A stretch of DNA of 64,000 nucleotides from Candidatus Palauibacter ramosifaciens (GTDB lineage Bacteria; Gemmatimonadota; Gemmatimonadetes; Palauibacterales; Palauibacteraceae): the NCBI GenBank assembly GCA_009845855.1, contig VXYT01000105.1:944-64943 (forward strand), written 5' to 3'. Below the pieces are notes generated by a model that did no database searches, was not told the origin of the DNA, and saw nothing but the letters and a program-made list of their open reading frames with translations. The translations under genes were made by a program, and so were the position numbers. Positions 5,925 to 55,616 of this stretch are shown piece by piece. Every line of letters begins with the position of its first letter. The first letter of the stretch is position 1.

Positions 5925-7157
5925 ATGCCGCGCCTCGCGAACATCGGCTGCCTCGCCACCTGCGCGAACCCTGCCGGGCAGGACGACATCGGGCTCATCC
6001 GGGACGCCGCGCTCGTGTGGCGCGATGGGACCGTACGCTGGGCCGGGCCGGCCACGGCGCTGCCGGCGGAGTTCGAAGCGGAGCCCGCCCTGGACGCCGG
6101 TGGGCGGCTCGTCATTCCCGGACTCGTGGACGCGCACACGCATCTCGCCTTCGGCGGCTGGCGGGCGGATGAGTTCGCCGATCGGCTGCGGGGCCGCGCT
6201 TACCTGGAGATCGCCGCGGCGGGCGGCGGGATCGCCTCCACGGTGCGGGCGACGCGCGCTCTCGAAGAGGAGGCGCTGCTCGCCCGGGCGCGGCAGTTCC
6301 TGTCCGACATGGTGTCCCTCGGGATCACGACCGTAGAGGCGAAGAGCGGGTACGGGCTGGACATGGAGACGGAACTCCGACTCCTGCGGGTGTACCGGCG
6401 ACTCGACGAAATGGGAGCGGCGCGGATCGTCGCGACGTGCCTCGCCGCGCACGTCGTCCCTCCGGAATGGGCGGCCGACCGGGCGGGCTATGTGAGGCTC
6501 ATCACGGAGCGGATCCTGCCCGCCGTGGCCGAGGAGGGGCTGGCCGAGTTCTGCGACGTGTTCGTCGAGGACTCGGCCTTCTCCGCCGGCGAGGCGCGGC
6601 GGATCTGCGAACGGGGATCCGAACTGGGGTTACGGCCGAAGCTCCATGTGGACCAGCTCTCCGAGGGTGGCGGGGCCGAACTCGCCGCGTCGCTCGGCGC
6701 CGTGTCGGCGGACCACCTGGAGTACGTGTCGGAGGCCGGGATCGAGGCGCTCGCGGCGGGCGGCGTCGTCGGGGTTACGCTTCCCCTCGCCACCCTCTAC
6801 CTGAACCAGGCGCCGCCCCCGGCCCGGGCGCTCATCGAGGGCGGTGTCGCGGTGGCGGTGGCCACCGATTTCAACCCCGGCACCGCCCCGTCCTATCACC
6901 TTCCGTTCGCCATGACGCTGGCCTGCATGCGACAACGGATGACGCCCGCCGAAGTGCTCAAGGGCGCAACGCGCTACGCGGCCCGCGCCCTCGACCTCGA
7001 AGGCGAAGTGGGGTCGCTGGAGCCGGGAGCCGCAGCGGATTTTGCGGTCATCGATGCCCCCGACGTGGAGCACTGGCTCTACCACCTGCGGCCCAATGCG
7101 TGCGTCGCCGTGGCGAGCCGCGGCGAGATCTGCCGCGGAGTGCTTCGGAGAGCCTAG
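5925..7157 (+). CDS. hutI: imidazolonepropionase
   Basis: 410 aa, amidohydrolase motif GLVDAHTHL; follows hutU. Confidence 0.9.
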   Translation: MPRLANIGCLATCANPAGQDDIGLIRDAALVWRDGTVRWAGPATALPAEFEAEPALDAGGRLVIPGLVDAHTHLAFGGWRADEFADRLRGRAYLEIAAAGGGIASTVRATRALEEEALLARARQFLSDMVSLGITTVEAKSGYGLDMETELRLLRVYRRLDEMGAARIVATCLAAHVVPPEWAADRAGYVRLITERILPAVAEEGLAEFCDVFVEDSAFSAGEARRICERGSELGLRPKLHVDQLSEGGGAELAASLGAVSADHLEYVSEAGIEALAAGGVVGVTLPLATLYLNQAPPPARALIEGGVAVAVATDFNPGTAPSYHLPFAMTLACMRQRMTPAEVLKGATRYAARALDLEGEVGSLEPGAAADFAVIDAPDVEHWLYHLRPNACVAVASRGEICRGVLRRA

Positions 7158-7202: not shown

Positions 7203-8498
7203 TCAGACCCCGGGATTCGCTGCCGAATTGAGCGTGACCGTGCCCCCGTCCAGTCTGATGACCGTACGGTTCCAGCCGCCGTCCCGTCGGCGAACGAGGC
7301 GAAGCATCTCCACTGCGGCGTCGAGCAGGTCCGCAGCGATGAGCTTGCCGCCGTAGCTCTCCCGGATCGTGCGCACGGGGGTATGTCCGACGACGTGAAT
7401 GCGGGCCCCGTAGCGCTCCAGGACAGCATCGAGGTGGCCTCCGAGCGTGTCGGTAAGCACCAGGTCCCGGTACCAGAGCACGCTCTCCGGTCCGAAGAAG
7501 AAGTCGTATCGGCGATAGATCCGGGCGGGATCGCGCCGGGTTTCGCGCACATATTCGCGGAGGAACGCTTCGTCCCGCCATCTCGTGAACAGCGGTTCCT
7601 CGATGAAGGTCACCAGGGTGTCCTGGTACTCACCGAGCGAAGAGTCGACATAGGCCGGACTCACGCCCCCGTGCGCGAACAGCAGATCCCCAAGTCTGAC
7701 GAGCCCCGGCTTGGCCGCGATCCAGTCGCCGAGGACGGATCTCTCCGGATCGAACAGCGTCTCATAGGCCATGCCGTGCAGTTCGCCGATCGTCTGCTCC
7801 TTCGGCGCCACGTAGCGGAGATCGCCGGTCAGGACCATCGCTTCATGATTGCCGAGGAGTGTGATGACCCGGCCCCCCGCCGCCGTGGCCTCCCGTTCCA
7901 GGCCGTAGACGAACCAGAGGAGGCGCGTCACGTCGTTCCCCCGGTCGAACAGGTCTCCCAGGAAGGCGACCGCGGCGTCGCCGCCCGTCCAGCGCCCTTC
8001 CGCGTCGATCAGCCCGGCCCGGCCGAGCAGCGATACGACGCGGTCGAACTCGCCGTGCACGTCTCCGAACACGAACACGGAGTCGTGGCCGGTGAGATCG
8101 ACTTCCGGGGGCGGGGGCTCGGCCCAGATCCGGGTTCGGTGCAACGGCGCGGCGCCGCCGGCGCCCTCCGGAGGCCCGGCCCCGTATTCGAGCGTGACTT
8201 CGGGCGCCCGTACCCGCAGGCGAGCCGCGTGCGCGTACCCCGACTCCGTCTTCTGCTCGTCGGCCACCCGCCCATCGACAATCGCCCGCACCAGGCCGGG
8301 CCGCTCCTCTTCGGTCAGCCAGCGCACTTCGAGACCGGCGCCGGTGAACGCGACGTAGAGTCCGTACTCCCCCGCGACATGCCAACCGGACTGCCCCGTT
8401 CGCGCAACGGACCCGGCCAGCGGCGTCGCGCCGCCAACAGCGACCGTCGAGGCGCCGGTCCACCCCGCCCCCGCAGCGGCGACGGCACAGCCCAGCAC
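7203..8498 (-). CDS. calcineurin-like metallophosphoesterase
   Basis: GDVHGEF...GDLFDRG...GNHE motifs; N-terminal hydrophobic/Ala-rich signal-like region. Confidence 0.6.
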   Translation of the reverse strand: MLGCAVAAAGAGWTGASTVAVGGATPLAGSVARTGQSGWHVAGEYGLYVAFTGAGLEVRWLTEEERPGLVRAIVDGRVADEQKTESGYAHAARLRVRAPEVTLEYGAGPPEGAGGAAPLHRTRIWAEPPPPEVDLTGHDSVFVFGDVHGEFDRVVSLLGRAGLIDAEGRWTGGDAAVAFLGDLFDRGNDVTRLLWFVYGLEREATAAGGRVITLLGNHEAMVLTGDLRYVAPKEQTIGELHGMAYETLFDPERSVLGDWIAAKPGLVRLGDLLFAHGGVSPAYVDSSLGEYQDTLVTFIEEPLFTRWRDEAFLREYVRETRRDPARIYRRYDFFFGPESVLWYRDLVLTDTLGGHLDAVLERYGARIHVVGHTPVRTIRESYGGKLIAADLLDAAVEMLRLVRRRDGGWNRTVIRLDGGTVTLNSAANPGV

Positions 8499-8521
8499 AC
8501 CGGACAGCCGACGCGGAAGCC

Positions 8522-9520
8522 TCAGGGGATCAACTCGTAGCGGCCGTCATCGACCCGCTCCAGCAAGCGGACGATGCGCCTGTGCATCGCCCGGATTTCC
8601 GACTCCGTGAGGCCGAGCTGGATCCGGTCCGCCTCGCGTCGGACGCCGCGGCCGGGGTCGAGATTCTCCGTCGGCTCCACCTCCACGAAGTTCCCGGCCC
8701 GCAGTTCAAGCTCGACGAGGACCCCGAGTCGCGCCTGCAGATCTTCGAGCGAGAGGCCGCGCAGTCGGTCGATGGCGGAGGCCGCGTAGCGGTCGAGGCG
8801 CAGATTGCGCCACTGCGTGCCGCGGCTGCTCTCCTCGCTCGCGAACGCCACGCCGTTGTCGACGCTGAACATGCGGGGCCACGCGGGATCCAACGACTGC
8901 ACGAAGTTCCCCTCGTTCGAGTCGCTGTGGCGGATGATGTAGGTGAGGAGGTTGAAGTTTCCGAGCAGACGCTCGTAGACCTCGTCTTCCTCGATTCGGT
9001 CGTCGTCGGGAAGGTCGTCGGGGAGGTCGACGTTGAACATCCAGTACTGGAGCGCGACGAGGGTCATCGGCCACTCGTCGAACGTCGGTTCCGGAGGGGG
9101 GGCCGCGTCTCCCGTCCGGGCGACCGTCGCCCGCACGACATCGACGGGGAACGCGCGGATCGCGGTCGGAGGCACGACCATCTCCCGCTCGTCGAGGAAG
9201 AGGGCCTGGACGTCGTAAGCCGCCAGCTCGTAGCGGGGCCGGTTGTTGAACTCGTCTGCGCCCTCGCCGGCCGGGGCGTACTTGACCTGGAGCACATGGT
9301 CGCCGGACTGCAGCGTGACGCGATACGTGCGCTCGCCCGGAAGGCCGCGGGACGGATGTACGTCGAGGACCTGCAATTCGCCCTCGCGGAGGATCCGTTC
9401 GATCTCGGCGATGGGGAGAAGAAAATTGGCGTCCTGGGCCGCCGCCGGGGCCGCCGCCGCAACGGCGGCCACTGCAACGACGAAGACGGGGGCCCGAAGC
9501 CGATTCGCGCAGCGCATCAT
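8522..9520 (-). CDS. secreted hypothetical protein
   Basis: True start MMRCANRLRAPVFVVAVAAVAAAAPAAAQ (signal peptide) preceded by GGAGGGAGG; ATGATGA overlap with the histidine kinase stop. No recognisable domain. Confidence 0.5.
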   Translation of the reverse strand: MMRCANRLRAPVFVVAVAAVAAAAPAAAQDANFLLPIAEIERILREGELQVLDVHPSRGLPGERTYRVTLQSGDHVLQVKYAPAGEGADEFNNRPRYELAAYDVQALFLDEREMVVPPTAIRAFPVDVVRATVARTGDAAPPPEPTFDEWPMTLVALQYWMFNVDLPDDLPDDDRIEEDEVYERLLGNFNLLTYIIRHSDSNEGNFVQSLDPAWPRMFSVDNGVAFASEESSRGTQWRNLRLDRYAASAIDRLRGLSLEDLQARLGVLVELELRAGNFVEVEPTENLDPGRGVRREADRIQLGLTESEIRAMHRRIVRLLERVDDGRYELIP

Positions 9521-10314
9521 TCCGCAGCCTCCCTCCGGGCGGGAGCCGTGGGCTGCCGGAGCGGGAGGTACACGTCGAACGTCGTCCCACGTCCCGGCTC
9601 GCTCTCGACCGAGATGTCTCCTCCGTGCTGGTGTACGATCTGGAGCGTGATCGCGAGACCCAGCCCCATCCCGATCCGCTCGCCCTTGGTCGTGAAGCCG
9701 GGCTCGAAGATCTCCTCGATGACGTCGGGCGGGATGCCACGGCCCGTGTCGGCGACGCGGACGTGCGCGTGATCCCCTTCCACCCGCGTCCGGACGGTGA
9801 GTGCGCCGCCGTCGCGCATGGCCTGGGCCGCGTTGTGCACGAGGTTCATGAACACCTGGTTGATCCGGTTCGGATGGCACACTACGAGCGGCAGATCCCC
9901 GAAGTCGCGGACGACGTCGATCTCCCTCAGCTCGTGTCCCAGCAGCGCCAGCGTGCCCTCGATGCCCTCGTGAAGGTCCGCGGGGCGAGGCTCGGAGGTC
10001 GTGGGCCGGCCGAAGTTCCGCAGGTTCCGCACGAGGCTCACCATGCGTTCCACCGCGATGCCGTTCGTCCGCAGCACCGACTCCGTGGCCCGGACGACCC
10101 TCCGAACCTCGTCGAGTTCGTCCGGCGTGACGACCTCGTCCTCGAGGATCTCCCCCAGTTTGAGGAGGGCGCGCTCGATGACGTGGTGGTTGCTGTTCAG
10201 CGCGCCCAGCGGGGTGTTGAGTTCGTGCGCGATCCCGGCGACCAGCATGCCGAGCGTCGCCAGTCGGGCCTGCGTGATCTCCCGTGCCGTCGGCCCGAGC
10301 CCCGGCTCGCTCAC
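9517..10314 (-). CDS. sensor histidine kinase (cytoplasmic, HisKA + HATPase_c)
   Basis: H-box GIAHELNTPL; N, G1 and G2 boxes (NLVHNAAQA, DTGRGIP, GMGLGL). GTG start overlaps the response-regulator TGA (GTGA). Confidence 0.75.
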   Translation of the reverse strand: MSEPGLGPTAREITQARLATLGMLVAGIAHELNTPLGALNSNHHVIERALLKLGEILEDEVVTPDELDEVRRVVRATESVLRTNGIAVERMVSLVRNLRNFGRPTTSEPRPADLHEGIEGTLALLGHELREIDVVRDFGDLPLVVCHPNRINQVFMNLVHNAAQAMRDGGALTVRTRVEGDHAHVRVADTGRGIPPDVIEEIFEPGFTTKGERIGMGLGLAITLQIVHQHGGDISVESEPGRGTTFDVYLPLRQPTAPARREAAE

Positions 10315-10796
10315 AGGAAGGCCTGTATCCAGCGCTGCCGGAGTCCGGCGAGTTCGTCGTTGGCGGCTTCGAGTTCGGCCATGCGTTCGGTCAACGCTCG
10401 AAAAAGGAGGCTCCGCTCGACGCCGTTGCGGATGGCGAAGGCGAGCGCGTCGTTGTTCCACGGCTTCTCAAGATACTGGTAGAGCCCGGCTTCGTTGATG
10501 GCGAGGATGGCGTTCTCCTTGTCGGCGTAGCCCGTGAGCAGAATCCGGGTCGCCTCCGGCCTCACCCCGCGGGCTCGCGTCAGGAACTGCACGCCGTCGA
10601 GTTCGGGCATCATGAGGTCGGCCACGATCGCGTGGACCGGTTCCTCCTCCAGGTGGGCAAGCGCGTCGCGCGCGGAGGTGAAGGGGAGCACGTGGTGGTC
10701 CGTTTCCAACTCCAGGAACCCCTGGATGGCGTCCACGACCATGTCCTCGTCGTCGACGACCATCACGGTGCCGCCGTCCGGCTTGATCTCATCCAT
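10311..10796 (-). CDS. response regulator (receiver domain with C-terminal coiled coil)
   Basis: VMVVDDE...D...MP..DG...K receiver motifs; 161 aa. Confidence 0.8.
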   Translation of the reverse strand: MDEIKPDGGTVMVVDDEDMVVDAIQGFLELETDHHVLPFTSARDALAHLEEEPVHAIVADLMMPELDGVQFLTRARGVRPEATRILLTGYADKENAILAINEAGLYQYLEKPWNNDALAFAIRNGVERSLLFRALTERMAELEAANDELAGLRQRWIQAFL

Positions 10797-10802
10797 GTCG
10801 GA

Positions 10803-13800
10803 TCATGTCATCGCCAGGCCGCGAACGCGACTCGCAAGCCCGCGGAGCAGATCGAGGCCGAGTTCCGGGTGGTCGATGAGAAGGTCTCGAAAGTCCTCCC
10901 GCGTGATGCGCAGCACGCGGGTGGGCGCGACGGCGCGCGCCTCGACGAGACTCGGGTGTTCGTCGATCAGCGCCCACGTCCCGAACGCCTCTCCGTCCGT
11001 GATGGAGATCGACCCCTCCCCCTCACCCTCGAGCGAAACTTCACCGTGGATCACGAGATAGAGGGCATCCGTCGGCTCCCCCCTCCGGATGAAGATGGCA
11101 TCCGGCCGCACCTCCACCTCCCTTGCGATCGAGGCGAGGAGCGCGAGTTGCCGGCTCTTCACGCCCGAGAGGAGATCCACGCTCTGCAGGCGGAACACCT
11201 TTTCGATCAGTTCCATCTCTTCCTCGTCTCGTTCGTCCCCCGGCTCCCGCTCGGGGGTCTCCGCTCGCCGTGCAAGCCGGCCAGCCACCAGCGCCAGCGC
11301 CGGTTCCGCCGGCGTGAAACCGCGGAGGGCCTCTTCCGTTGCGCCGCGGTCGGTTTCGAAGGATGTCCAGAGCGCGCACCTCGCGATCCAGGCGTCCTCA
11401 TCGTCCCACAGCTCCCGCAGAACCTCTCCCGTCTCATGACGGGGACCGTGCGGGGCCTCCTCCGCGAGCACCGGCCTGAGGTCGGAGAACGTACGGTGCC
11501 CGACCGTGGTCTCGATCCATTCCAGCGCGTTCGCGCGGCGGCGCGGTCCGCTCTCCAGGGCCAGGTAGCTGCGCCGCATCGGCTGTTCGGGATATACGAG
11601 CCCGAGCCACCGGAAGACACTCGCCCGCCGGTCCCTCCGCGCCTCGGCGAGCGCCCGGAGGAGCAGCGTTCGGGGCATCGACGCCGGCAGGCCCTCGAGT
11701 GCGGTGGCGGCGCGTGCGTAGCGCCGGGACGCCTCGACCTCCCGCTCGACGGCTTCCAGCACCCTCTCCGCCGGAAACGTGAGGTGATCGTGCCGCGTGC
11801 GCAGCCGGTGCAGCGACACGAGCGCCTGGTCGTCGAGCGCCTGTTCGGTTTCCGGCAGCAGATAGGACGTGACGAGGGCGTCGATCGTGGCGGGCGTCGC
11901 GATCTCCCCGAGCACGCTCGCCACGCCCCGGCGGACCCAGGGGTCGCCGCCCGGGTCGGCCAGCGCCGCAAGCAGAGGCTTCACGATCTCCTCTCCCCGC
12001 CCCGCGAGGCCTTCGCGAGCCGCGCTCCGGGTCCGGGGGATCGCCAGCGACGCGATGGCCGCCTGCACGAGGGCCGGCTGCGGCAGCCGGGATGCGCTGC
12101 GCGCGGCCGCCGCCGCAACCTCCCCGCGGGGATCGGAGATCAGTCCGAGGAGGACGCGCTCCACCGCGGGATGACCCGGGACGAGCCCCGCCGCCGTCGC
12201 CAACTCGCGGGCGTCGGCTCCGCTTAGCGCCCCCCGCTCATGGTCTCGCAGCAGGTGATCGAAGCGGGGGGTCGCGATGCGTTCGGCGCGCTCGGCGCCG
12301 AAGTCGCCGAACAGGCAGTCGAGCGCAGCCGAGCGGGCGTTCGCCGACTCCGAGTCGAGGAGCGGGATGAGGACATCCCGGGCGCGCGGCGCCGCTTTCA
12401 GGGCGAGGAGCCGGGCCGCGGCGCGCCGCACGGCGGCGTCCGGATCCTCGAGCCGGGCCCGGACGGCCCCCTCGTTCGAGAGGCCGGGGGCGCGCGCCAG
12501 CGATCGCAGCGCCCTCGCCCGAAGGCCGGGGCTCTCGTGCTCGAGGAGGCGGTACAGCTCCGGGGAAAGCGCCTCGATGTCCTCCGGCGTGGCGCCGCCC
12601 AGGAGGTCGAAGGCGAACGCGATCTTCAGCGGCCGCTCGTCCTCGAGCGCGTCCCGTGCGAGAGCCAGCGCCCCCACGTCCGCCATCGACACGAAGGTTC
12701 CGCGCAAGCTCGCGAAGCGCCCCTCGAAGGATTGCGCGAGACTCGTCACGTACGACTTTCGCACCCTGAGGAAGGCGAGCAGCAGGACGCCTGCCAGCGC
12801 TACGCCGACGACCCCGAGAATGATGAGCCGACCCATGATCGAAACGCCGGCGAGAGCGAGCGAGGGGATCGCGATGAGCACGCCGGATAGCGCTTTCCCC
12901 AACCCCTTTTCCACCGCCACGTCGATGTACGACTTCGCCTTGAGCTTGATGTCCTCCGGGACGGGCACATAGAGGATCTCGCGGCCCGTGCGCTCGGCGG
13001 AATAGCGGAACGTCTTCTCCGTCGTCCGGGCCCCCACGGCGACGGCGAGCGCGGCGGTGGACAGCCACACGGCGGCGGCGAGCGCCCCGGTAGCGAGGAT
13101 CACGGCCACGGGGAAGATGATGACGGCCACCGCGGCTCCCCAGCGGCGCAGGATCGGACGCAGCGCGAGGAGGACGACGATCGGGAGCCACTGCGTGAGT
13201 ACATCGACGAAGGCCAGGAAGCCGGCGATCGCGCCCAGATCGGTGAAGACCTCGCGCGTCAGCGTGTTGTACTGGTAGTCGATGAACTGCTTGACGACGA
13301 TCGTCAGCAGCACGGTGGCCGCGATGAGCCGCACCTGCGGGTGCGCGGCCATGCGGCGCAGATCGCTGCGCTCGAGCTCCGGGTCTTCCGCGTGCGCGTA
13401 CTCCGACGGCGGCTCCGGCGGCTCCCGCGACCATACGAGAGCGAGCCCGCCAGCCAGCAGGAGGAGCGCGGCGCCCGCCACGAGGAGCAGATTCTCGGAC
13501 GGCCCGCCGCCGGAGGTGAAGACGGTCGTGAGAAGCGCTCCGAGCGTGGCCCCGGCCGACCCCGAGGCGATGACGACCGGATAGGCGCGCTTCGCGTCGC
13601 GCGCGTTATAGAAGACCTGCGTCGCAATGTAGAAGTGCGTGACGAGCGAGGCCGCCAGCACGTCGTACCACCCGTAGAAGACAAGCCCGAACCAGGCCTC
13701 TCCCGGCCGGTAGAGAAGGCGAAAGGCAACCATGCTGAGGGCGAAGAACGCTGCCGTCAGGGGGATGAGGCGGCGCCACGAGATGCGATCCGAGAGGAAG

Positions 13801-13949
13801 TTGTAGAGGGGGGCGACGACCACCACCGCCGCGCTGATGAAGTACACCTGGTAGAAATCGCCCGCGGCGAGTCCCGAGAGGGCGAAGGCGCTGCGCAGGG
13901 GACGCAGGATCCCGATTACGAAGAGGACGAGCGCCGCCAGCCCCATCAT
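10803..13949 (-). CDS. TLC/NTT-family (ATP:ADP antiporter-like, MFS-type) transporter fused to HEAT repeats and a C-terminal cyclic-nucleotide-binding domain
   Basis: N-terminal ~450 aa polytopic, with LFAMMGLAALVLFVIGILRPLRSAF resembling the TLC N-terminus. Middle ~400 aa is Ala/Leu/Arg-rich HEAT-like repeats (DPDAAVRRAAARLLALKAAP...). C-terminus is cNMP-binding (GEAFGTWALID...RAVAPTRVLRI). Start chosen at MMGLAAL; the ORF extends to 14048. Confidence 0.7.
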   Translation of the reverse strand: MMGLAALVLFVIGILRPLRSAFALSGLAAGDFYQVYFISAAVVVVAPLYNFLSDRISWRRLIPLTAAFFALSMVAFRLLYRPGEAWFGLVFYGWYDVLAASLVTHFYIATQVFYNARDAKRAYPVVIASGSAGATLGALLTTVFTSGGGPSENLLLVAGAALLLLAGGLALVWSREPPEPPSEYAHAEDPELERSDLRRMAAHPQVRLIAATVLLTIVVKQFIDYQYNTLTREVFTDLGAIAGFLAFVDVLTQWLPIVVLLALRPILRRWGAAVAVIIFPVAVILATGALAAAVWLSTAALAVAVGARTTEKTFRYSAERTGREILYVPVPEDIKLKAKSYIDVAVEKGLGKALSGVLIAIPSLALAGVSIMGRLIILGVVGVALAGVLLLAFLRVRKSYVTSLAQSFEGRFASLRGTFVSMADVGALALARDALEDERPLKIAFAFDLLGGATPEDIEALSPELYRLLEHESPGLRARALRSLARAPGLSNEGAVRARLEDPDAAVRRAAARLLALKAAPRARDVLIPLLDSESANARSAALDCLFGDFGAERAERIATPRFDHLLRDHERGALSGADARELATAAGLVPGHPAVERVLLGLISDPRGEVAAAAARSASRLPQPALVQAAIASLAIPRTRSAAREGLAGRGEEIVKPLLAALADPGGDPWVRRGVASVLGEIATPATIDALVTSYLLPETEQALDDQALVSLHRLRTRHDHLTFPAERVLEAVEREVEASRRYARAATALEGLPASMPRTLLLRALAEARRDRRASVFRWLGLVYPEQPMRRSYLALESGPRRRANALEWIETTVGHRTFSDLRPVLAEEAPHGPRHETGEVLRELWDDEDAWIARCALWTSFETDRGATEEALRGFTPAEPALALVAGRLARRAETPEREPGDERDEEEMELIEKVFRLQSVDLLSGVKSRQLALLASIAREVEVRPDAIFIRRGEPTDALYLVIHGEVSLEGEGEGSISITDGEAFGTWALIDEHPSLVEARAVAPTRVLRITREDFRDLLIDHPELGLDLLRGLASRVRGLAMT

Positions 13950-14059
13950 GGCGAACAGCTTCCCCGCCCCGGCCCTCCGCGCGAAGACCCCGCGGAACTT
14001 CACGTGCCCTCCGGCGCCGGGGTGGCTTCGACCTCCCGGGCGGTCCATCTTTCCGGACT

Positions 14060-14133
14060 TCGGGGCGTGGCGCAGTCCGGTAGCGCACCTGCTTTGGGAG
14101 CAGGGGGTCGCCGGTTCAAATCCGGCCGCCCCG
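14060..14133 (+). tRNA. tRNA-Pro (anticodon UGG)
   Basis: Cloverleaf: acceptor CGGGGCG/CGCCCCG, D-arm GCGC-AGTCCGGTA-GCGC, anticodon stem CCTGC/GCAGG with loop TTTGGGA (UGG), T-arm GCCGG-TTCAAAT-CCGGC, discriminator A. CCA not encoded. Confidence 0.85.
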
Positions 14134-14193
14134 ATTCAACCGGGCAGCCCGCCGCAGGGGCCCCACGCCCGGCGGGCGGCCGGACTCGAGGCT

Positions 14194-14820
14194 TCACGGC
14201 TCCATGCCCCGGTCCCGCAGGACTTCCCTTTCGATCCACCCCCTGGCCCGCCGGATCGCCTGCGCACGATGGCTCGTCGCCGTTTTCGCCGCAGCAGGCA
14301 GTTCGGCGTAAGTGCGGTCATGGCCCTCCGGCACGAAGAGCGGGTCGTAGCCGAAGCCTCCCGAACCGCTCGGCCGGCGCGCGATCCGGCCTTGCACGAT
14401 GCCCTCCACGACTTCGTGGCGCAGATCGTCCGTGAGCGCGACCGCGCAACGGTAGTGCGCCCCGCGGCGCTCCGCGTCCACGTCTTCCAGCTGCTCGAGC
14501 AGCCAGCGGTTGTTCGCTTCGTCCCGTCCCCAGCGCGCGACGCGGTCGGGAGGGGCAAAGCGCCGGGTCCGCACGCCGGGACCGCCCTGGAGGGCGTCCA
14601 CGCAAAGCCCGGAATCGTCCGCGAGCACGGGGAGACCGGACCGGCGGTGAAAGTACTTCGCCTTGGACAGCGCGTTGCGTGCGAAGGTGTCGAAGGGTTC
14701 GAGGTGGTCCTCTTCCTCCTGCTCGGGAAGGCCGAGGTCCTCCGGCCCGAGCAACCGGACGGGAAGATCGGCGAGGAGGCCGCGGATTTCGCGGAGTTTG
14801 TGGGCGCTGCGCGTGGCCAC
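14194..14820 (-). CDS. rdgB: dITP/XTP pyrophosphatase (RdgB/HAM1 family)
   Basis: LVATRSAHKLREI...FGYDPLF...HRA motifs. GTG start at 14820 lies just downstream of the stop of the upstream membrane protein. Confidence 0.75.
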   Translation of the reverse strand: MATRSAHKLREIRGLLADLPVRLLGPEDLGLPEQEEEDHLEPFDTFARNALSKAKYFHRRSGLPVLADDSGLCVDALQGGPGVRTRRFAPPDRVARWGRDEANNRWLLEQLEDVDAERRGAHYRCAVALTDDLRHEVVEGIVQGRIARRPSGSGGFGYDPLFVPEGHDRTYAELPAAAKTATSHRAQAIRRARGWIEREVLRDRGMEP

Positions 14821-14837
14821 GAGGACCGGGGGCCGGT

Positions 14838-15800
14838 TCAGTCCGCCCAAAGACTCTCCGCCGTGAGACTCTCCGCGAACGCCGGGTAGACCTTCCACAG
14901 ATATCCGCCCATGACGAGCGCCGCGAGGATGTTCCCGACCAGGACCGACCACCAGGCGAGTTCCTCGAGGATCCAGCCCCCCAGCATCGCGACCATGGCG
15001 ACGAAGAAGACCTCGAAGACGACGAACAGCACGATGATGCCGAGGGCCAGCGGCGGGAATCTGGACACCTGTCTCGCAAGGCCGGAGACCGCAACGCCGA
15101 ACAGCACGAAGAAGGCGAAATGGGCCAGCGTGTAGCCGAGGACCGGCGCGAAAGAGATCTCGACCGCGGCCGGCGTCGGGGCGCCTCGGAACAGAACCGT
15201 CGCCAGCGCTGCCGGCGTGTAGAGCGGCTGTCGCAGGATGGTGTCGATGATGAGAAACCAGAACGCGACGACCACCGCGCCGAGGACCCCGGCGTAGATC
15301 CCGTGCCGCGTGACGCGGTGCGTCTGCAGGAAGTTCATCATCCCCACGATGCCGGGTTCGGAACTCACCCAGTGCATATGCGTGAACATCACGACCCCGG
15401 CGAGCGCGTTCCCGAAGAAGACGGCCGGCCATCCCGGCGCGGACATGACGATCCCGGAAGGCGCCCGGATGAGTCCGAGGTAGAACGCGAGCGAGCACAC
15501 GAAAAGCCCGTAAAGCGCGCCGATGAACACGTTGCGCGGGACGCCCGCCCACTGCACGAGCGCCGCGGCCAGCATCCCGAGCCCGGCCCACGCGGTGAAG
15601 TGGATGAGGGTGAAGCCCACGATGATCCCCGCCGACACCTCGACCTCGGCGCGGCTGATGATCGCCCCCCAGAGGAAGGCGGGGGTCTGAAGCGGGGTCC
15701 CCTGCCCGAGGTCGTAGAAGTAGAAGAGCACCGCGAGGACGAAGCCGCCCAGCAACCCTCCGACGAGCCCGGCCCGGATCCTGCGCCTGAGCGTCAGCAT
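14838..15800 (-). CDS. polytopic membrane protein with internal two-fold repeat (unknown function)
   Basis: About 8 TM helices. Two homologous halves each carry (A/E)VE(V/I)S...G(F/Y)TL(I/A)HF, plus a HMHW motif. Sits between ctaB and rdgB. Confidence 0.5.
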   Translation of the reverse strand: MLTLRRRIRAGLVGGLLGGFVLAVLFYFYDLGQGTPLQTPAFLWGAIISRAEVEVSAGIIVGFTLIHFTAWAGLGMLAAALVQWAGVPRNVFIGALYGLFVCSLAFYLGLIRAPSGIVMSAPGWPAVFFGNALAGVVMFTHMHWVSSEPGIVGMMNFLQTHRVTRHGIYAGVLGAVVVAFWFLIIDTILRQPLYTPAALATVLFRGAPTPAAVEISFAPVLGYTLAHFAFFVLFGVAVSGLARQVSRFPPLALGIIVLFVVFEVFFVAMVAMLGGWILEELAWWSVLVGNILAALVMGGYLWKVYPAFAESLTAESLWAD

Positions 15801-15804
15801 GGCG

Positions 15805-16008
15805 TCAGCGCGCGGAGTCCGGGTCGACGGCGTGGGCCGCCTCCCATTTGCGCTGTTCCTCCAGGGCTTCCTCGACCTCCCGCTGGCGTTGCCGGCGGCG
15901 CGCCCGGAAAATCCCGCCCCCGATCACGACGAGCAGCAGGTAGGGCATCGCCGCCATAAACACGAACATGAGGACGTATCCCGCCTGTTCGTCGGGCGTA
16001 TGCTGCAT
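15805..16008 (-). CDS. small single-TM membrane protein
   Basis: 67 aa (MQHTPDEQAGYVLMFVFMAAMPYLLLVVIGGGIF + charged tail), 45 nt downstream of ctaB. Only the C-terminal part of ORF 15805..16602 is credible. Confidence 0.35.
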   Translation of the reverse strand: MQHTPDEQAGYVLMFVFMAAMPYLLLVVIGGGIFRARRRQRQREVEEALEEQRKWEAAHAVDPDSAR

Positions 16009-16052
16009 CTGCGGGGCCGCCGCGAGGACGGCGAAAGGTTTCGGCACGGCCA

Positions 16053-16973
16053 CTACAGCTTGTCGAGGACGAGTACCGCCATGAGCAGTGGAAGATACAG
16101 GATCGAGGCCCGGAACAAACCCCGGGCGTTCGCCGGCGTCGCGGCGCGGGCGAAGCGGAGCGCGGTCCACAGGAAGAACCCGCCGAGACCGAGCGCCACC
16201 GTGAAGTAGGCGAGGCCTGTGAGGCCGAGGACGCTCGGTAGCAGACTCACCGGAATCAGCGTGAGCGCGTAGAGCAGCGCCTGGTGGCGCGTCCGCCGGC
16301 CCTCGAAATCGCCGACGGAGAGCATGCGAAGCCCCGCCGCCCCGTAATCGTCGCGGAGCAGCCACGCCAGGGCGAGAAAGTGCGGCAACTGCCAGACGAA
16401 GAGGATCGCGAACAGCGCCCAGCCGCCCGGACCGAACTGCCCGGTGGCGGCGGTCCAGCCACCGAGGATCGGCAGCGCCCCGGGCACCGCGCCCACGACG
16501 GTGGAGAGCGAGTGCACGCGCTTGAGCGGCGTGTAGACGAAGTCGTAGGAGATGAAGGTGGCGAGCGCGAGGCCCGCGGTCACCGGATTGACCGCGATCC
16601 ACAGCCAGACGATGCCCGCCGCGGCCAGGACGCCGGAGAAGGCCGCAGCCGGGGGTGTCGCGATCCGGCCCGCCGGCAGAGGCCGCGCGCGCGTGCGCCC
16701 CATGAGCGCGTCCACATCCCGCTCCAGCACCTGGTTCATCGCGCTCGTTCCCGATGCCACGAGGGCCACGCCGGCCATGGCCTGCGCGAAGAGGGCGAAG
16801 TCGAAGCTCGCCGCGCCGAGGAGGAATCCGGCGGCCGCGCTCGCGACGACGAGCGCCGTGATGCGCGGCTTGGTGAGTTCCAGGTATGCGGGAAGCGTCC
16901 CGCGAATCGAGTGGACCCGCCTCGACATCCCGCCGAGCGGGATGGGGGCCTTCAGCAGGCTGCCGGCCTCCAC
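16053..16973 (-). CDS. ctaB: protoheme IX farnesyltransferase (heme O synthase)
   Basis: UbiA-family polyprenyltransferase with the typical CtaB/CyoE N-terminus YLELTKPRI. Start may be the internal ATG at 16928. Confidence 0.85.
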   Translation of the reverse strand: MEAGSLLKAPIPLGGMSRRVHSIRGTLPAYLELTKPRITALVVASAAAGFLLGAASFDFALFAQAMAGVALVASGTSAMNQVLERDVDALMGRTRARPLPAGRIATPPAAAFSGVLAAAGIVWLWIAVNPVTAGLALATFISYDFVYTPLKRVHSLSTVVGAVPGALPILGGWTAATGQFGPGGWALFAILFVWQLPHFLALAWLLRDDYGAAGLRMLSVGDFEGRRTRHQALLYALTLIPVSLLPSVLGLTGLAYFTVALGLGGFFLWTALRFARAATPANARGLFRASILYLPLLMAVLVLDKL

Positions 16974-16986
16974 GACGGCGTCGCGC

Positions 16987-17295
16987 CTACACGTACTCCA
17001 TCATGATCGCGATGATCATGATGGCCACGGCCGGAAGGGGCGCCAGCGCCACCAGCCGCAGGCGGTTGGGTTCGAATTTCAGGTGCATGTAGTAGAGCGC
17101 GACGAGCAACGCCTTCCAACCCGCCATGATGAGCAGTGACGTGATGATCAACCACTGTGCGATGTCCAGGTAGACCACCCCGACCTCGAGGGCCGTGAGG
17201 ATGGCCAGGTACAGCCAGATGAGCATGTACTTCGGGTGCTCGTGCCCGTGATCGTCGGCGCCGCCCGCCGCGTGTCCTCCGGCTGCTTCACTCAT
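16987..17295 (-). CDS. cytochrome c oxidase subunit IV (prokaryotic type)
   Basis: 102 aa, two TM helices, His-rich N-terminus; directly downstream of coxC. Confidence 0.6.
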   Translation of the reverse strand: MSEAAGGHAAGGADDHGHEHPKYMLIWLYLAILTALEVGVVYLDIAQWLIITSLLIMAGWKALLVALYYMHLKFEPNRLRLVALAPLPAVAIMIIAIMMEYV

Positions 17296-17350
17296 TCGTT
17301 CGCTCCATGTCTCCCGGCGCCGACCGGCCCGGCGCGGCCAGGTGTCGACG

Positions 17351-17965
17351 CTAGATCAGGTATACGATCGTGAACAGGATGATCCACACGAGGTCGACGA
17401 AGTGCCAGTAGAGGCCGAGCACCTCGATCCCGTGCGTGTTGTCCGCCCCCCAGTGCCCGCGCCAGGCGCGGATCGTGGCCCACGCAAGGCAGATGACGCC
17501 GAGCAGGACGTGGAAGCCGTGGAAGCCCGTCATGGTGAAGAACGTCGCCCCGTACAGTCCCGCGGCCGGCGTGAACCCGTGGCTCCCCTGCCAGGACTGG
17601 TGAAGCACGAGTTCGACGTACTCGTACACCTGCACGCCGAGGAAGGTCGCCCCCAGGAGCGTCGTCCCCAGGAGATAGACCTTGATCCCCCGCTGATCCC
17701 CCGCCTGCGCGGCCGCGAACGCCTTCACCATCGTCACCGAGCTGCAGATGAGGAGGAAGGTGTTGAACGCGGTGATCGGGACGTTGAGCACCTCGTTGGG
17801 TACCGCCCACGTGTCGGCGGCCCCGAACCGGAGCACGACGTACGAGCCGATGAGGCCCGCGAAGAACATCACCTCCGAGCACAGAAACACCCACATTCCC
17901 ACCTTCTGGGTGTAGACGTCGAGTCCTCGCTCGGGGACCCGGCCTGCGGTCGCGGCGTGCGCCAT
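17351..17965 (-). CDS. coxC: cytochrome c oxidase subunit III
   Basis: 204 aa with 5-6 TM helices; GFHGFHVLLGV and WHFVDLVWI motifs. Confidence 0.85.
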   Translation of the reverse strand: MAHAATAGRVPERGLDVYTQKVGMWVFLCSEVMFFAGLIGSYVVLRFGAADTWAVPNEVLNVPITAFNTFLLICSSVTMVKAFAAAQAGDQRGIKVYLLGTTLLGATFLGVQVYEYVELVLHQSWQGSHGFTPAAGLYGATFFTMTGFHGFHVLLGVICLAWATIRAWRGHWGADNTHGIEVLGLYWHFVDLVWIILFTIVYLI

Positions 17966-18008
17966 TATCGTCTCTTCCCTTCCCCTGCGCTGCTGGTTCG
18001 ATCGATGG

Positions 18009-19775
18009 TCAATGGCTGCCCGCGGCCGGGCTCACGACGTCCGGCCGTTCGTTCTGGGCCAGCCAGTCCTTGTCCTCCACATCCGGGTGGCTGTACTCGT
18101 GCGGACCGTGATAGACGACCGGGACTTCCTCCCAGTTGCCGTGCTTGGGCGGCGAGGGCGTCTGCCATTCCAGCGTCGTCGCGTTCCACGGATTCGCCCC
18201 GGCCTTCCTCCCCTTCTTCAGGCTCCAGAAGAAGTTGAAGGCGAACAGGAAGCCGGACGCGAAGAGTCCGAACGCCGCCCACGTGATGATCGCGTTCGTG
18301 TCCTCGATGCCCTGCAGGTGCGCGTAGCCGGTGGAGTCGTAGATGCGGCGCATCATCCCCACCATCCCCACGCCGTGCATCGGGAAGAAGACCAGGTTGA
18401 AGAAGACGAAGGTGAGCCAGAAGTGGATCTTGCCCATCGTCTCGTTCATCATCCGGCCGAACATCTTCGGATACCAGAAGTAGATCGCCCCGAAGAGCGC
18501 GAACAGGCTGCCTCCGAAGAGTACGTAGTGGATATGCGCCACGATGAAGTACGTGTCGTGGATGTAGATGTCCACCGGCGTCGAGGCCATGAAGACGCCC
18601 GACAGGCCTCCGATCGCGAACATCGCCACGAACCCGATCGCGAACAGCATGGCCGAGTGGAGCTGGAGGTTCCCGCGCCACATCGTGCCCATCCAGTTGA
18701 ACGTCTTGATCGCCGAGGGCACGGCGATGAAGAGCGTCGAGACGGTGAAGGTGAGCCCCAGCATCGGGTTCATCCCGCTCTGGAACATGTGGTGGCCCCA
18801 CACGATGAAGCCCAGGAAGGCGATCGAGACGAGCGCCAGGACCATCGCCTTGTAGCCGAACACCGGCTTCCGCGACCCCACGGAGAGGATCTCGGAGGTG
18901 AAGCCCATGGCCGGGAGGATGAGGATGTAGACCTCCGGGTGGCCGAAGAACCAGAACAGGTGCTGCCAGAGGAGCGGCTGTCCCCCGCCCTCCGGGAGGA
19001 AGAAGCTCGTTCCGATCGTCTGGTCGAAGATGAGCATGATCCCGGCGGCCGACAGGACGGGCATCGCGAGCAGCGCGAGGATGGCCGTGATGAACAGCGA
19101 CCAGATCGTCAGCGGCATGCGCATCCAGGTCATGCCGGGGGCGCGCATGTTGATCGTCGTCGTGATGTAGTTCACCGATCCCAGAATCGATGAGAGCCCG
19201 ATGAAGACGAGCGCTACCAGCCACAGGATCTGCCCCAGCCCGACGCCGGTAAGGTCGGGACGCGCGCTGAGCGGCGCGTAGAGCGTCCAGCCGGCCCCGG
19301 CCGCGCCTCCGACGACGAAGAAGCTGGCAAGGGTGAGGATGCCCGCCGGCACCATGGCCCAGAATGAGAGCATGTTGAGCCGCGGGAACGCCATGTCGTG
19401 CGTGCCCAGCTGGAGCGGGATGAGGTAGTTCGCCCACACGCCCACGAGCATCGGCATGATGGCGAGGAAGACCATCACCGAGCCGTGCATCGTGACGAGC
19501 GCGTTGTAGAACTCCGGCAGTATGTACCCGCTCGCGACCATGCTCTCGGGGAAGATCCCGCCCAGCGGCAGCTCGCCCCGCGCCGGCCACGCGATCTGGT
19601 ATCGCATGAGCATCGCGAGCAGTCCGCCGATCATGAGGAAGAACAGGGTGTAGATCAGGAACTGGATCGCGATGACCTTGTGGTCGGTCGAGAAGATGTA
19701 CTTGCGCAGGAAGGACTGCTCGTGCTCCTCGTGCAGGATCGCCTGCCCGGTCGCCTCCGCTACGATCGTCGCCAT
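18009..19775 (-). CDS. coxA: cytochrome c oxidase subunit I (A-family heme-copper oxidase)
   Basis: 588 aa; WFFGHPEVYILILP and HDTYFIVAHIHYVL motifs. Confidence 0.95.
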   Translation of the reverse strand: MATIVAEATGQAILHEEHEQSFLRKYIFSTDHKVIAIQFLIYTLFFLMIGGLLAMLMRYQIAWPARGELPLGGIFPESMVASGYILPEFYNALVTMHGSVMVFLAIMPMLVGVWANYLIPLQLGTHDMAFPRLNMLSFWAMVPAGILTLASFFVVGGAAGAGWTLYAPLSARPDLTGVGLGQILWLVALVFIGLSSILGSVNYITTTINMRAPGMTWMRMPLTIWSLFITAILALLAMPVLSAAGIMLIFDQTIGTSFFLPEGGGQPLLWQHLFWFFGHPEVYILILPAMGFTSEILSVGSRKPVFGYKAMVLALVSIAFLGFIVWGHHMFQSGMNPMLGLTFTVSTLFIAVPSAIKTFNWMGTMWRGNLQLHSAMLFAIGFVAMFAIGGLSGVFMASTPVDIYIHDTYFIVAHIHYVLFGGSLFALFGAIYFWYPKMFGRMMNETMGKIHFWLTFVFFNLVFFPMHGVGMVGMMRRIYDSTGYAHLQGIEDTNAIITWAAFGLFASGFLFAFNFFWSLKKGRKAGANPWNATTLEWQTPSPPKHGNWEEVPVVYHGPHEYSHPDVEDKDWLAQNERPDVVSPAAGSH

Positions 19776-50710: not shown

Positions 50711-51307
50711 TCAGGGGAAATCGACCTCGAAGCCGAGCGCCAGCCCGATGGAGCCATCTGCGGGCGGGCCGATCGACGGCTCGAAGTCCCAGAACTGCGT
50801 GGACACCCAGGCGTCGAGACCGCTCAGAAAGGCGAAAAAACCGGCGAGGACGATCCAGTTCTCCCTCTGCCCCGAGCGGTTGGAGATTCGCTCTTCGTTC
50901 AGCGGCAGCTCCTCCTTCGCCGCGGAGAGCCGGGCGTCCGATTTGAATACCATGAACAGGAAGACGGACTCCGCCGCGAAGTAGAAGGCGCCGCGAGCCG
51001 GGCGCCCGACCTCCAGTTGTCCCCAGCCCGGAAGGATCAGGGAGCGCCCGAAGGCACCGAGCGGGGAGATCGGCGGGCGCCGAATCGTCGTGTCGGCGAC
51101 AAGGCTCGTTTCGGCGACGGCGGAATCGGGCGCGGCCACGGGAAGCGGTGGATCCTGCGCCCGCAGCGGCGAGGGGCCCAGGGCCTGGCCGGCCAGAAGC
51201 ACGGTCACGAGCACGAAGGTGGCGGGAACGTGTGGGAATCGAACCCACCCGGGACGCGCGAACGCCCCGTAACGGTTTTGAAGACCGCAGGCGACACCAG
51301 TCACCAT
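50711..51307 (-). CDS. hypothetical secreted/membrane protein with PGWGQ motif
   Basis: N-terminal hydrophobic segment; LILPGWGQL motif and FFAFLSGLDAWV helix. Confidence 0.35.
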   Translation of the reverse strand: MVTGVACGLQNRYGAFARPGWVRFPHVPATFVLVTVLLAGQALGPSPLRAQDPPLPVAAPDSAVAETSLVADTTIRRPPISPLGAFGRSLILPGWGQLEVGRPARGAFYFAAESVFLFMVFKSDARLSAAKEELPLNEERISNRSGQRENWIVLAGFFAFLSGLDAWVSTQFWDFEPSIGPPADGSIGLALGFEVDFP

Positions 51308-51353
51308 CCGCTCCCGGTCATCCGCATCGTTCGTGGTTCATATCCGGCCGCCG

Positions 51354-55206: not shown

Positions 55207-55247
55207 GGCGGAGCACTGCCGGCGCGGGTCCGAGACCCTGCACCCGA

Positions 55248-55616
55248 TGGAGGCGGCGGGAATCGAACCCGCGTCCGCGAGCCCATCCGCCACGGCATCT
55301 ACGTGCGTAGTCCGTGATCGAGTCTCGTCCCGCAAGGGTTCACGAACAACCCCTTGCGAAACCAGCCGCGTACACGGCTCTCGCCATGCTCTCGCCACCC
55401 GCGGCTCACGGCACGCCGGGATGACCAGCCCGATTCATCGACGTCCATCGGGAGGTCCTCGGGCCCGGACCTCTCGGGGACGGGCTACGCGATTTTACGC
55501 AGCCAGAGCCAAACCATCGTTGGCACCTGAAGATTCCCCGGTGTTTAACGAGGCCCCGGGCACCTCGGCACGCTTCCGCGGCTTCCGGTTCACGCGTCGA
55601 AGCCGTGTCGCCCCCC
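55248..55616 (-). ncRNA. ssrA: tmRNA (ssrA)
   Basis: 5' end GGGGGCGACACGGCUUCGACGCGUG...GUGCCGAGG. 3' end has T-arm GGUUCGAUUCCCGCCGCCUCCA. Internal tag reading frame GCC AAC GAU GGU UUG GCU CUG GCU GCG UAA gives ANDGLALAA*. Confidence 0.8.

Follow-up and report, generated by a model that had tools for sequence, protein, structure and literature searches.

The window analysed here is a 64 kb stretch of DNA (~ 70% G+C) from Candidatus Palauibacter, a member of the Gemmatimonadota. Open reading frame (ORF) and Pfam analysis identified five co-directional genes on its minus strand (7203-14003). These encode, in 5′ to 3′ order, a fusion of an NTT-type carrier to HEAT repeats and a cyclic-nucleotide-binding-fold domain (cNBD), a receiver-only response regulator, a minimal histidine kinase, an exported PI4-kinase-like protein and a Shewanella-like PPP phosphatase (Table 1). 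Comparison with related genomes showed that the five genes make up a conserved, translationally coupled module of signalling proteins and of enzymes that are, as judged from their conserved residues, catalytically intact. The reading put forward here, to which we would give a probability of about 45%, is that the carrier is a phosphorelay-controlled NTT-type transporter that acts as the effector of the module and works together with the exported kinase/phosphatase pair.

The junctions between the genes are tight. The carrier stop codon (10805-10803) is separated by a spacer of 6 nt, rather than the 7 nt given in an earlier note on this DNA, from the ATG of the response regulator at 10796. The TGA of the response regulator overlaps the GTG of the kinase gene as GTGA, and the TGA of the kinase gene overlaps the ATG of the gene for the 332-residue exported protein as ATGA; both overlaps had been read correctly before. 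The earlier note placed the end of the cluster at 8522 and so missed the fifth co-directional gene (8498-7203), the phosphatase gene, which starts 23 nt past the end of the 332-codon gene at that position. A promoter/terminator scan found no terminator-like or promoter-like sites inside the five-gene operon. The carrier gene itself has several possible starts, namely ATG 14048 (1081 aa), GTG 14003 (1066 aa) and ATG 13949 (1048 aa). The 18 residues between GTG 14003 and ATG 13949, VKFRGVFARRAGAGKLFA, are conserved and are included in the gene calls of close relatives, which begin MKFRGVFARRAGAGKLFAMMGL..., and GTG 14003 is therefore the best choice. The order of the three domains in the fusion of ~ 1050 aa reported previously was correct, and the start assigned to it at ATG 13949 was most likely not.

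The closest proteins to the carrier are 86-94% identical, and all 80 species-level genomic loci of its relatives belong to the Gemmatimonadota, the nearest being metagenome-assembled genomes (MAGs) of Candidatus Palauibacter from sponges and corals. Of these loci, 76 include the whole carrier gene (41-98% identity). In them (denominators count the loci with sufficient contig) the receiver gene lies downstream on the same strand in 75/76 and the histidine kinase gene in 72/72. The gene for the 332-residue kinase-like protein is likewise downstream on the same strand in 57 of 71 loci, with a further five on the opposite strand and a few upstream, and a Metallophos phosphatase gene is so placed in 48/66. 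The recurrence of the same gene order in ~ 76 species-level genomes takes the arrangement far beyond chance. In more distant genomes the outer flanks change entirely, and the carrier, receiver and kinase genes, usually with the phosphatase and kinase-like genes, are kept together. In Acidobacteria bacterium Mor1 (carrier 30% identical) the order is carrier, receiver, histidine kinase, phosphatase. The gene table for this locus (L094, CP011806) lists no genes in the 2.3 kb downstream of the receiver (10650-12900), and translated ORFs from this unlisted stretch match the histidine kinase (E 3e-54) and the phosphatase (E 4e-33) of the module. Another relative (P0277, 32% identity) has carrier, receiver, a kinase with a PAS domain and a phosphatase that is joined to a kinase-like domain in one protein. 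When metagenomes were scanned with an outgroup clade as seed, the receiver lay downstream in 10/11 complete loci, and the histidine kinase and phosphatase were there wherever the contig leaves room. This outgroup clade also has, in 10 loci, a divergently oriented gene upstream of the carrier whose exported, kinase-like product shows the canonical DRHxxN and IDH motifs. The persistence of the set in distant genomes rules out a chance or purely syntenic adjacency, and the proposal that the carrier is wired to a phosphorelay is, as far as adjacency goes, strongly supported across the Gemmatimonadota and in relatives of Acidobacteria type at about 30% identity.

The membrane module of the carrier is a divergent member of the NTT/TLC family; the window sequence alone is marginal in this respect, whereas at the level of the family the assignment is clear. 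A Pfam scan with the full-length carrier gave 26.6 bits for MFS_1 (gathering threshold 33.4) and 20.5 bits for TLC (gathering threshold 21), both below threshold, and the isolated membrane module reached 21.3 bits for TLC, just at the threshold. What favour a generic MFS identity has comes from this single sequence, for which the MFS_1 score is a little above that of TLC, neither lying clearly above its threshold. Across the family the order of the two models is reversed, the TLC model matching 16/16 members (best E 7e-18) and MFS_1 15/16 (best E 6e-11). When a membrane-module profile built from the 16 family members was compared with the PDB, the sole real matches were the two solved NTT translocases (CpNTT1, 9j3n, E 9e-16; AtNTT1, 9j3j, E 1.5e-15), with the best other MFS protein at E 0.19. 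A Foldseek search with the carrier model also placed AtNTT1 and CpNTT1 at ranks 1-3 (E 1.8e-8 to 1.4e-7, TM-score 0.66-0.74), the top match being AtNTT1 9j3m (E 1.8e-8, TM-score 0.74). Together, these comparisons rule out a generic MFS identity and bear out the TLC/NTT assignment made in the earlier note.

AtNTT1 and CpNTT1 (TLC/NTT, TC 2.A.12; PDB 9j3j-9j3o), the best matches to the carrier by both sequence profile and fold, also allow its substrate site to be examined. The carrier is only 15-18% identical to the canonical NTTs, with a membrane module of ~ 430 rather than ~ 500 aa and ~ 640 additional cytoplasmic residues; the signature loops of the two groups align as RYSAERTGREILYVPVP..KLKAK.YIDV with K(S/Y)..E(M)AYIPLD..KVKGKAAIDV. 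For AtNTT1, four charged residues have proved essential (PMC4256464, PMC3306366), among which K527 is needed for ATP binding and E245 for translocation (PMC3306366, PMC4256464), and a K155R substitution already abolishes ADP binding (PMC3306366). A chain-to-precursor offset of 84 was derived for AtNTT1, with which all four landmarks fall on K/E/E/K in the alignment. The equivalents of E245, E385 and K527 in the carrier are D114, D242 and K370 (1066-aa numbering); none of the three varies among the sequences (118/118), and Glu-to-Asp, at two of them, is a conservative change. Of the substrate-binding residues whose conservation was to be checked according to the earlier note, K155 is the one that is not kept: its equivalent, in a mapping that depends on a weak N-terminal hidden Markov model (HMM) alignment, is Gln52, and the position is K in 58, Q in 51, R in 6, E in 2 and L in 1 of the 118. 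Three of the four landmarks, including the ATP-binding lysine, argue for a nucleotide-like anion as substrate. ATP/ADP cannot, however, be assumed, because the K155 equivalent is Gln and even the K155R change abolishes ADP binding in AtNTT1.

In an AlphaFold2 model of the carrier, generated from 70 homologues (mean predicted local distance difference test score, pLDDT, 88.7), residues 13-430 form a helical membrane bundle and 428-441 a disordered linker, after which come an all-helical solenoid (445-∼ 915) and a β-roll (∼ 950-1066). The solenoid, which is modelled with high pLDDT, matches designed alpha-Rep HEAT proteins in the PDB, and both the HEAT_2 and the cNMP_binding HMMs, with which the domain claims were to be checked, gave significant matches on the carrier ORF (E 2e-18 and E 1.5e-13). 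HEAT repeats are protein-interaction scaffolds (PMC5381601). The architecture is not new, since NTT-HEAT and NTT-HEAT-cNBD fusions, with the same order of domains in one polypeptide as in the window carrier, have been described as monophyletic and widespread in free-living bacteria (Major, Embley & Williams 2017, PMC5381601), and NCBI already names the relatives 'Npt1/Npt2 family nucleotide transporter'. The control of NTT-HEAT-cNBD proteins by cAMP was offered in that paper as speculation, and no later functional work on these proteins was found in the literature.

The C-terminal domain of the carrier is recognizable as a member of the CNB family, its PDB matches being the CNB domains of PKA-R, CRP and MloK1 (E 1e-8 to 1e-9). 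In the canonical phosphate-binding cassette, G-E-x-A-L...(P)R-[ST]-A, the Glu contacts the ribose 2′-OH and the Arg the cyclic phosphate. The corresponding sequence in the carrier, FGTWALIDEHPSLVEA, aligns without gaps to PKA FGELALLYNAPRAATV, and has Thr where PKA has the ribose-binding Glu, and Ser where it has the phosphate-binding Arg. In 118 relatives (down to 43% identity) the Gly is present in 118/118, the Thr in 116/118, the Trp in 117/118 and the Ser in 117/118. Such near-invariance of the replacements speaks against decay and points to another ligand or to docking of a protein. The earlier note had proposed gating by cAMP or cGMP and had itself named the loss of conserved cassette residues as the finding that would overturn it; both the canonical Glu and the canonical Arg are absent, and on these residues cAMP/cGMP gating would be ruled out for this clade. 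The cNBD fold has probably ceased to read cAMP or cGMP, and may have been re-purposed for docking, for allosteric control or for binding something else.

A wider survey of the superfamily returned 13,356 representatives at E ≤ 1e-3 and 782 representative clusters at E ≤ 1e-30 with NTT-HEAT(-cNBD) lengths, and a rough neighbour-joining tree was drawn. The relatives recovered are 24-34% identical to the carrier, ~ 900-1240 aa long, and have zero, one or two cNBDs; one of them is an NTT-HEAT protein that lacks a cNBD and whose gene precedes a separate cNBD gene, in line with Major et al. The cassette reads GTW...PS in the clade of the window and G[TSA]W...PR in intermediate clades, and canonical GE...PRSA is kept only by a minority of distant members, often with two cNBDs. 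Among longer proteins (P0288-P0348, ~ 1200-1240 aa), many two-cNBD members have both cassettes highly degenerate (e.g. IGIY.., VGFE..), so loss of the canonical contacts is common across the superfamily and not peculiar to the Gemmatimonadota. The form of the cassette appears to go with the gene next door. Relatives with a G[TSA]W cassette had an adjacent receiver in 5/5 look-ups, namely Mor1, P0277 and three further relatives of the G[TS]W type, in which kinases are usually adjacent too; no receiver-only regulator adjoined the carrier in the 3/3 canonical GE...PRSA relatives sampled. Together with the missing output domain of the receiver and the varied inputs of the kinase, this pattern suggests that second-messenger control may have been swapped for docking of a phospho-receiver on the cytoplasmic tail.

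The response regulator consists of a REC domain and a C-terminal helix of ~ 35 aa, with no output domain, and all orthologues (78/78) keep its D15, D16, D60, T88 and K111. The kinase has neither a transmembrane segment nor a sensor domain, and is likewise reduced to DHp and CA (265-280 aa) in most Gemmatimonadota loci; the H-box His and the N box are present in 75/75 sequences and the G boxes in 74-75/75. The GTGA overlap and the co-occurrence in 72-75 of ~ 76 loci suggest that the two proteins are a cognate pair. Among relatives the kinase has various N-terminal inputs (six transmembrane helices, PAS or GAF), whereas receiver and carrier do not vary in this way. In one Gemmatimonadota/Longimicrobiales subclade (L062, L065, L073, where the kinase has ~ 650 aa, and L048) the kinase N-terminus has ~ 6 transmembrane helices and the motif HYIGASSWLATLFLLFPAIEWNMLYPG; this subclade lacks the phosphatase gene and sometimes has two copies of the kinase-like gene. 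A second histidine kinase gene stands directly upstream of the carrier in L071, L075, L079, L081, L043 and L045, its product having a multi-transmembrane N-terminus, except that in L071 the N-terminal domain is instead of the SixA-like phosphohistidine-phosphatase type (YLVRHGEA...).

The 332-residue protein was previously described as a secreted protein of unknown function. The first part of this description stands, as an N-terminal signal peptide ending AAA|QD is present; a PI4-kinase-like fold with intact catalytic residues had been missed. A profile of the protein gave only an insignificant match to Vps34 among PDB sequences, and a comparison of folds was therefore needed. The AlphaFold2 model (pLDDT 91.6) has as its top Foldseek match PI4KII-α (4hnd, E 1.5e-7), followed by PI4KII-β (1e-5), with PINK1, ERK5 and CtkA among the further matches. 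The window's own protein has no Pfam match, including to PF00454 at the gathering score. This family was matched by 7/12 orthologues (best E 2.8e-6), and precomputed PF00454 matches exist for just 2/120 database relatives, all of which are named 'hypothetical protein' and one of which, from a Gemmatimonadales MAG, is 100% identical. The sequence contains the motifs H198-x-D200-x4-N205 and D221-N-G, and thus the Asp and Asn of a kinase catalytic loop and a metal-binding Asp, with K80 and E98 as the Lys/Glu pair. Among orthologues E98, D200, N205, D221 and N222 are invariant (67/67), with H198 in 66/67 and K80 in 58/67. The protein thus resembles the type II PI4-kinases, or HipA/Fam20-like kinase folds, in keeping the catalytic D..N and D. 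No described bacterial counterpart of an exported PI4K-like protein was found in the literature.

The fifth gene product belongs to the Shewanella-like PPP phosphatases (Shelphs) described by Andreeva & Kutuzov 2004 (PMC535813). It matches the cold-active protein-tyrosine phosphatase of Shewanella (2z72/1v73) at E 2e-38, its similarity to ApaH being weak; the motifs GDVHG, GDLFDRG and GNHE are all in place and the metal ligands are invariant in 51/51 sequences. Most orthologues have a signal peptide or lipobox. What sets the present pair apart from known Shelphs and PI4-kinases is that both enzymes have export signals and are encoded in an operon with an NTT-type carrier. In one relative (L084, 10860-12821, plus strand) a 653-aa exported protein joins a Shelph domain to a C-terminal HipA/PI3-PI4-kinase-like domain; this fusion links the exported phosphatase and the exported kinase-like protein of the module in the manner of a Rosetta stone.

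How the five components might work together can be outlined from these observations. The histidine kinase would phosphorylate the output-less receiver, and the phospho-receiver would then contact the cytoplasmic HEAT/cNBD-like tail of the carrier, by a protein-protein interaction, and so gate transport. The carrier would move a nucleotide-like phosphorylated substrate, and the two exported phosphoryl-transfer enzymes would act in the same pathway on the periplasmic side. That the carrier is probably the effector is argued by a receiver without an output domain, by a kinase input that varies between clades while the receiver and carrier remain constant, and by the way in which the presence of the receiver tracks the non-canonical cassette. 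The most economical version, though a speculative one, is an exchange of ATP(in) for ADP+Pi(out) that feeds the exported kinase, because an active kinase outside the cytoplasm needs a phosphoryl donor there. Released ADP and Pi would return via the same carrier, the Shelph would reverse the action of the PI4-kinase-like enzyme, and a relay from the kinase through the receiver to the HEAT/cNBD-like tail would keep the ATP leak shut unless needed. A regulated, periplasm-energising system of this kind is, in our estimation, unlikely in its full form.

Several points weigh against a carrier that is the phosphorelay-controlled effector of the module. The NTT-HEAT class is functionally uncharacterised (PMC5381601), and the substitution and K/Q/R/E variation at the K155 position mean that the substrate may not be ATP/ADP at all. 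The link between cassette and receiver rests, on its canonical side, on three samples, one of them on a short contig. The outgroup kinase-like matches, though mutually consistent, lie individually below the Pfam thresholds, and the phosphatase of the window itself has a weak export signal and an ambiguous N-terminus. Finally, a kinase without a sensor is just as compatible with signalling the other way round, the carrier then being a co-sensor.

The last of these points has a fuller form, in which the carrier is a transceptor: with its tail it would sense or transport an extracytoplasmic nucleotide-like compound and signal to a kinase docked on the HEAT repeats, and thence through the receiver to targets elsewhere. 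The reduction of the kinase to DHp and CA here and in most Gemmatimonadota loci would be explained, as would the invariable adjacency of carrier, receiver and kinase; the HEAT repeats would offer the scaffold, and an exported phosphatase in the operon recalls Pho-type logic. Precedents exist in transporter-coupled two-component systems such as PhoR-PstSCAB-PhoU, UhpC-UhpB/UhpA, DctA-DcuS and BceAB-BceS, in which, as here, a transporter is coupled to a histidine kinase that itself lacks an effective sensor. Those systems, however, end in a DNA-binding response regulator, whereas the window encodes a receiver-only regulator and a transporter with a large HEAT/cNBD tail, which suggests the transporter as the target rather than, or besides, the sensor. 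Moreover, many kinases of relatives have input domains that would be needless if the carrier did the sensing, no partner with a DNA-binding or enzymatic output is conserved near the receiver, and there is no evident reason why the cassette should change together with the presence of the receiver. The transceptor is on balance doubtful.

A further possibility, proposed in the earlier note and by Major et al., is a nucleotide-scavenging importer that draws on a sponge host or on the environment, with cAMP or cGMP on the C-terminal domain tuning uptake to the energy state of the cell and the two-component system merely regulating expression. The NTT homology and fold are in keeping with this, as are the significant cNMP_binding match, the retention of the canonical cassette in some distant family members and the description of Palauibacter, in the accessible text of PMC10469786, as a sponge- and coral-associated genus; that text contains the word 'antiporter' once and 'two-component' not at all. 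Nevertheless, neither of the canonical residues that contact the cyclic nucleotide is kept, and those standing in their place are fixed in the clade. The family is also widespread in free-living Gemmatimonadota and Acidobacteria of soil, sediment and groundwater with genomes of 3-6 Mb, a receiver without a DNA-binding domain would not regulate expression directly, and the co-conserved exported kinase-like protein is left without a role. Both the importer and its gating by cyclic nucleotides in this form are thus quite improbable. At the other extreme, the genes might form no functional unit and be neighbours by descent, given that the cox, ctaB, rdgB and hut flanks are also syntenic in Palauibacter and close relatives. 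This is very hard to reconcile with distant genomes, across phyla, that swap these flanks wholly and retain the core set, with the overlapping start and stop codons, with the fusion of phosphatase to kinase-like domain in one lineage, and with accessory genes that move as a set, upstream or to the opposite strand in some loci.

The phosphorelay-controlled effector can also be placed beside other systems. A transport module followed by a C-terminal CNBD fold is found in SLC9C1 (the sperm Na+/H+ exchanger, with voltage sensor and CNBD), HCN, MloK1 and SKOR, and SLC9C1 and CNBD-gated channels are among the Foldseek matches of the carrier model. Their membrane folds are unrelated to that of the carrier, and their canonical cassettes bind cAMP/cGMP, whereas here the Glu and Arg are lost. 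For the version in which ATP is exported, and for this version only, an analogue exists in antiporters that give ATP to a compartment unable to make it: plastid NTT1 and the ER ATP/ADP exchanger SLC35B1/AXER, the latter feeding luminal kinases and chaperones. To our knowledge, no bacterial periplasmic equivalent of this supply has been reported. Compared with the class as described in PMC5381601, a paper without two-component neighbourhoods, the clade of the window has the GTW...PS cassette, an obligatory receiver/histidine kinase partner and, in addition, the exported kinase-like and PPP-phosphatase genes.

The initial observation on this locus is real, the fusion that it centred on is largely known already, and its headline of cyclic-nucleotide gating is not supported. 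What is new is a conserved non-canonical regulatory pocket, a deeply conserved five-component module undescribed in the accessible literature, and a testable hypothesis on extracytoplasmic phosphorylation. Free-living bacteria commonly have NTT-HEAT(-cNBD) proteins, which occur also in Chlamydia, cyanobacteria and oomycetes and whose function has been an open question since 2017; the gene cluster and the altered 'cyclic-nucleotide' pocket are the first testable clues to that function. If the carrier does feed ATP to the exported kinase, periplasmic biochemistry would have to be understood differently, against the textbook view that the periplasm has no ATP-dependent phosphorylation and as a bacterial parallel to ATP delivery into plastids and the ER lumen. 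If it is a regulated importer or a transceptor instead, the locus would still represent a new type of transporter-coupled two-component module.

Table 1. Positions in the window of the five genes and of the domains of the carrier fusion.
Feature	Position	Strand	Basis
NTT-HEAT-cNBD fusion gene, 1066 aa from GTG 14003	10803..14003	-	ORF, Pfam, AlphaFold2
NTT/TLC-type 12-helix MFS-fold carrier module, residues 1-430	12714..14003	-	PDB profile, Foldseek, TLC, helices
HEAT-repeat α-solenoid, ~ residues 445-915	11259..12671	-	HEAT_2 E 2e-18, three stretches
Cyclic-nucleotide-binding-fold domain, ~ residues 932-1066	10806..11210	-	PF00027 50.9 bits (gathering threshold 27.5), E 1.5e-13
Non-canonical phosphate-binding cassette FGTWALIDEHPSLVEA	10938..10985	-	Translation; alignment to PKA cassette GELALLYNAPRAATV
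Receiver-only response regulator, 161 aa	10311..10796	-	Response_reg E 1.3e-20
Minimal cytoplasmic histidine kinase, 265 aa, DHp + CA only	9517..10314	-	HisKA + HATPase_c
Exported PI3/PI4-kinase-like (protein-kinase-like fold) protein, 332 aa	8522..9520	-	AlphaFold2, Foldseek, conserved residues
Shewanella-like PPP metallophosphatase (Shelph), 431 aa	7203..8498	-	Metallophos E 4e-12

The flanks of the operon, with the cox operon, ctaB and rdgB upstream and hut genes downstream, are syntenic with those of Palauibacter relatives (including L001 and L002). An Rfam scan of the operon found no riboswitch upstream, the sole element being a tRNA-Pro(TGG) gene (14060-14135, plus strand), which lies on the opposite strand, 11-56 nt upstream of the possible carrier starts. 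This tRNA gene stands between the carrier gene and a gene for an rdgB/Ham1-type XTP/dITP diphosphatase (within 14194-15591, minus strand), which is the upstream neighbour in Palauibacter relatives too. Genes for cytochrome c oxidase subunit III and a UbiA/CtaB-type prenyltransferase follow further upstream (about 15800-19600, minus strand), and a hut-pathway amidohydrolase gene (imidazolonepropionase-like; 5925-7157, plus strand) is convergent with the end of the operon. Elsewhere in the window are the genes for a tmRNA (55245-55615, minus strand; tag peptide ANDGLALAA) and a tRNA-Sec (51220-51315, minus strand), the latter implying that the organism synthesizes selenoproteins.

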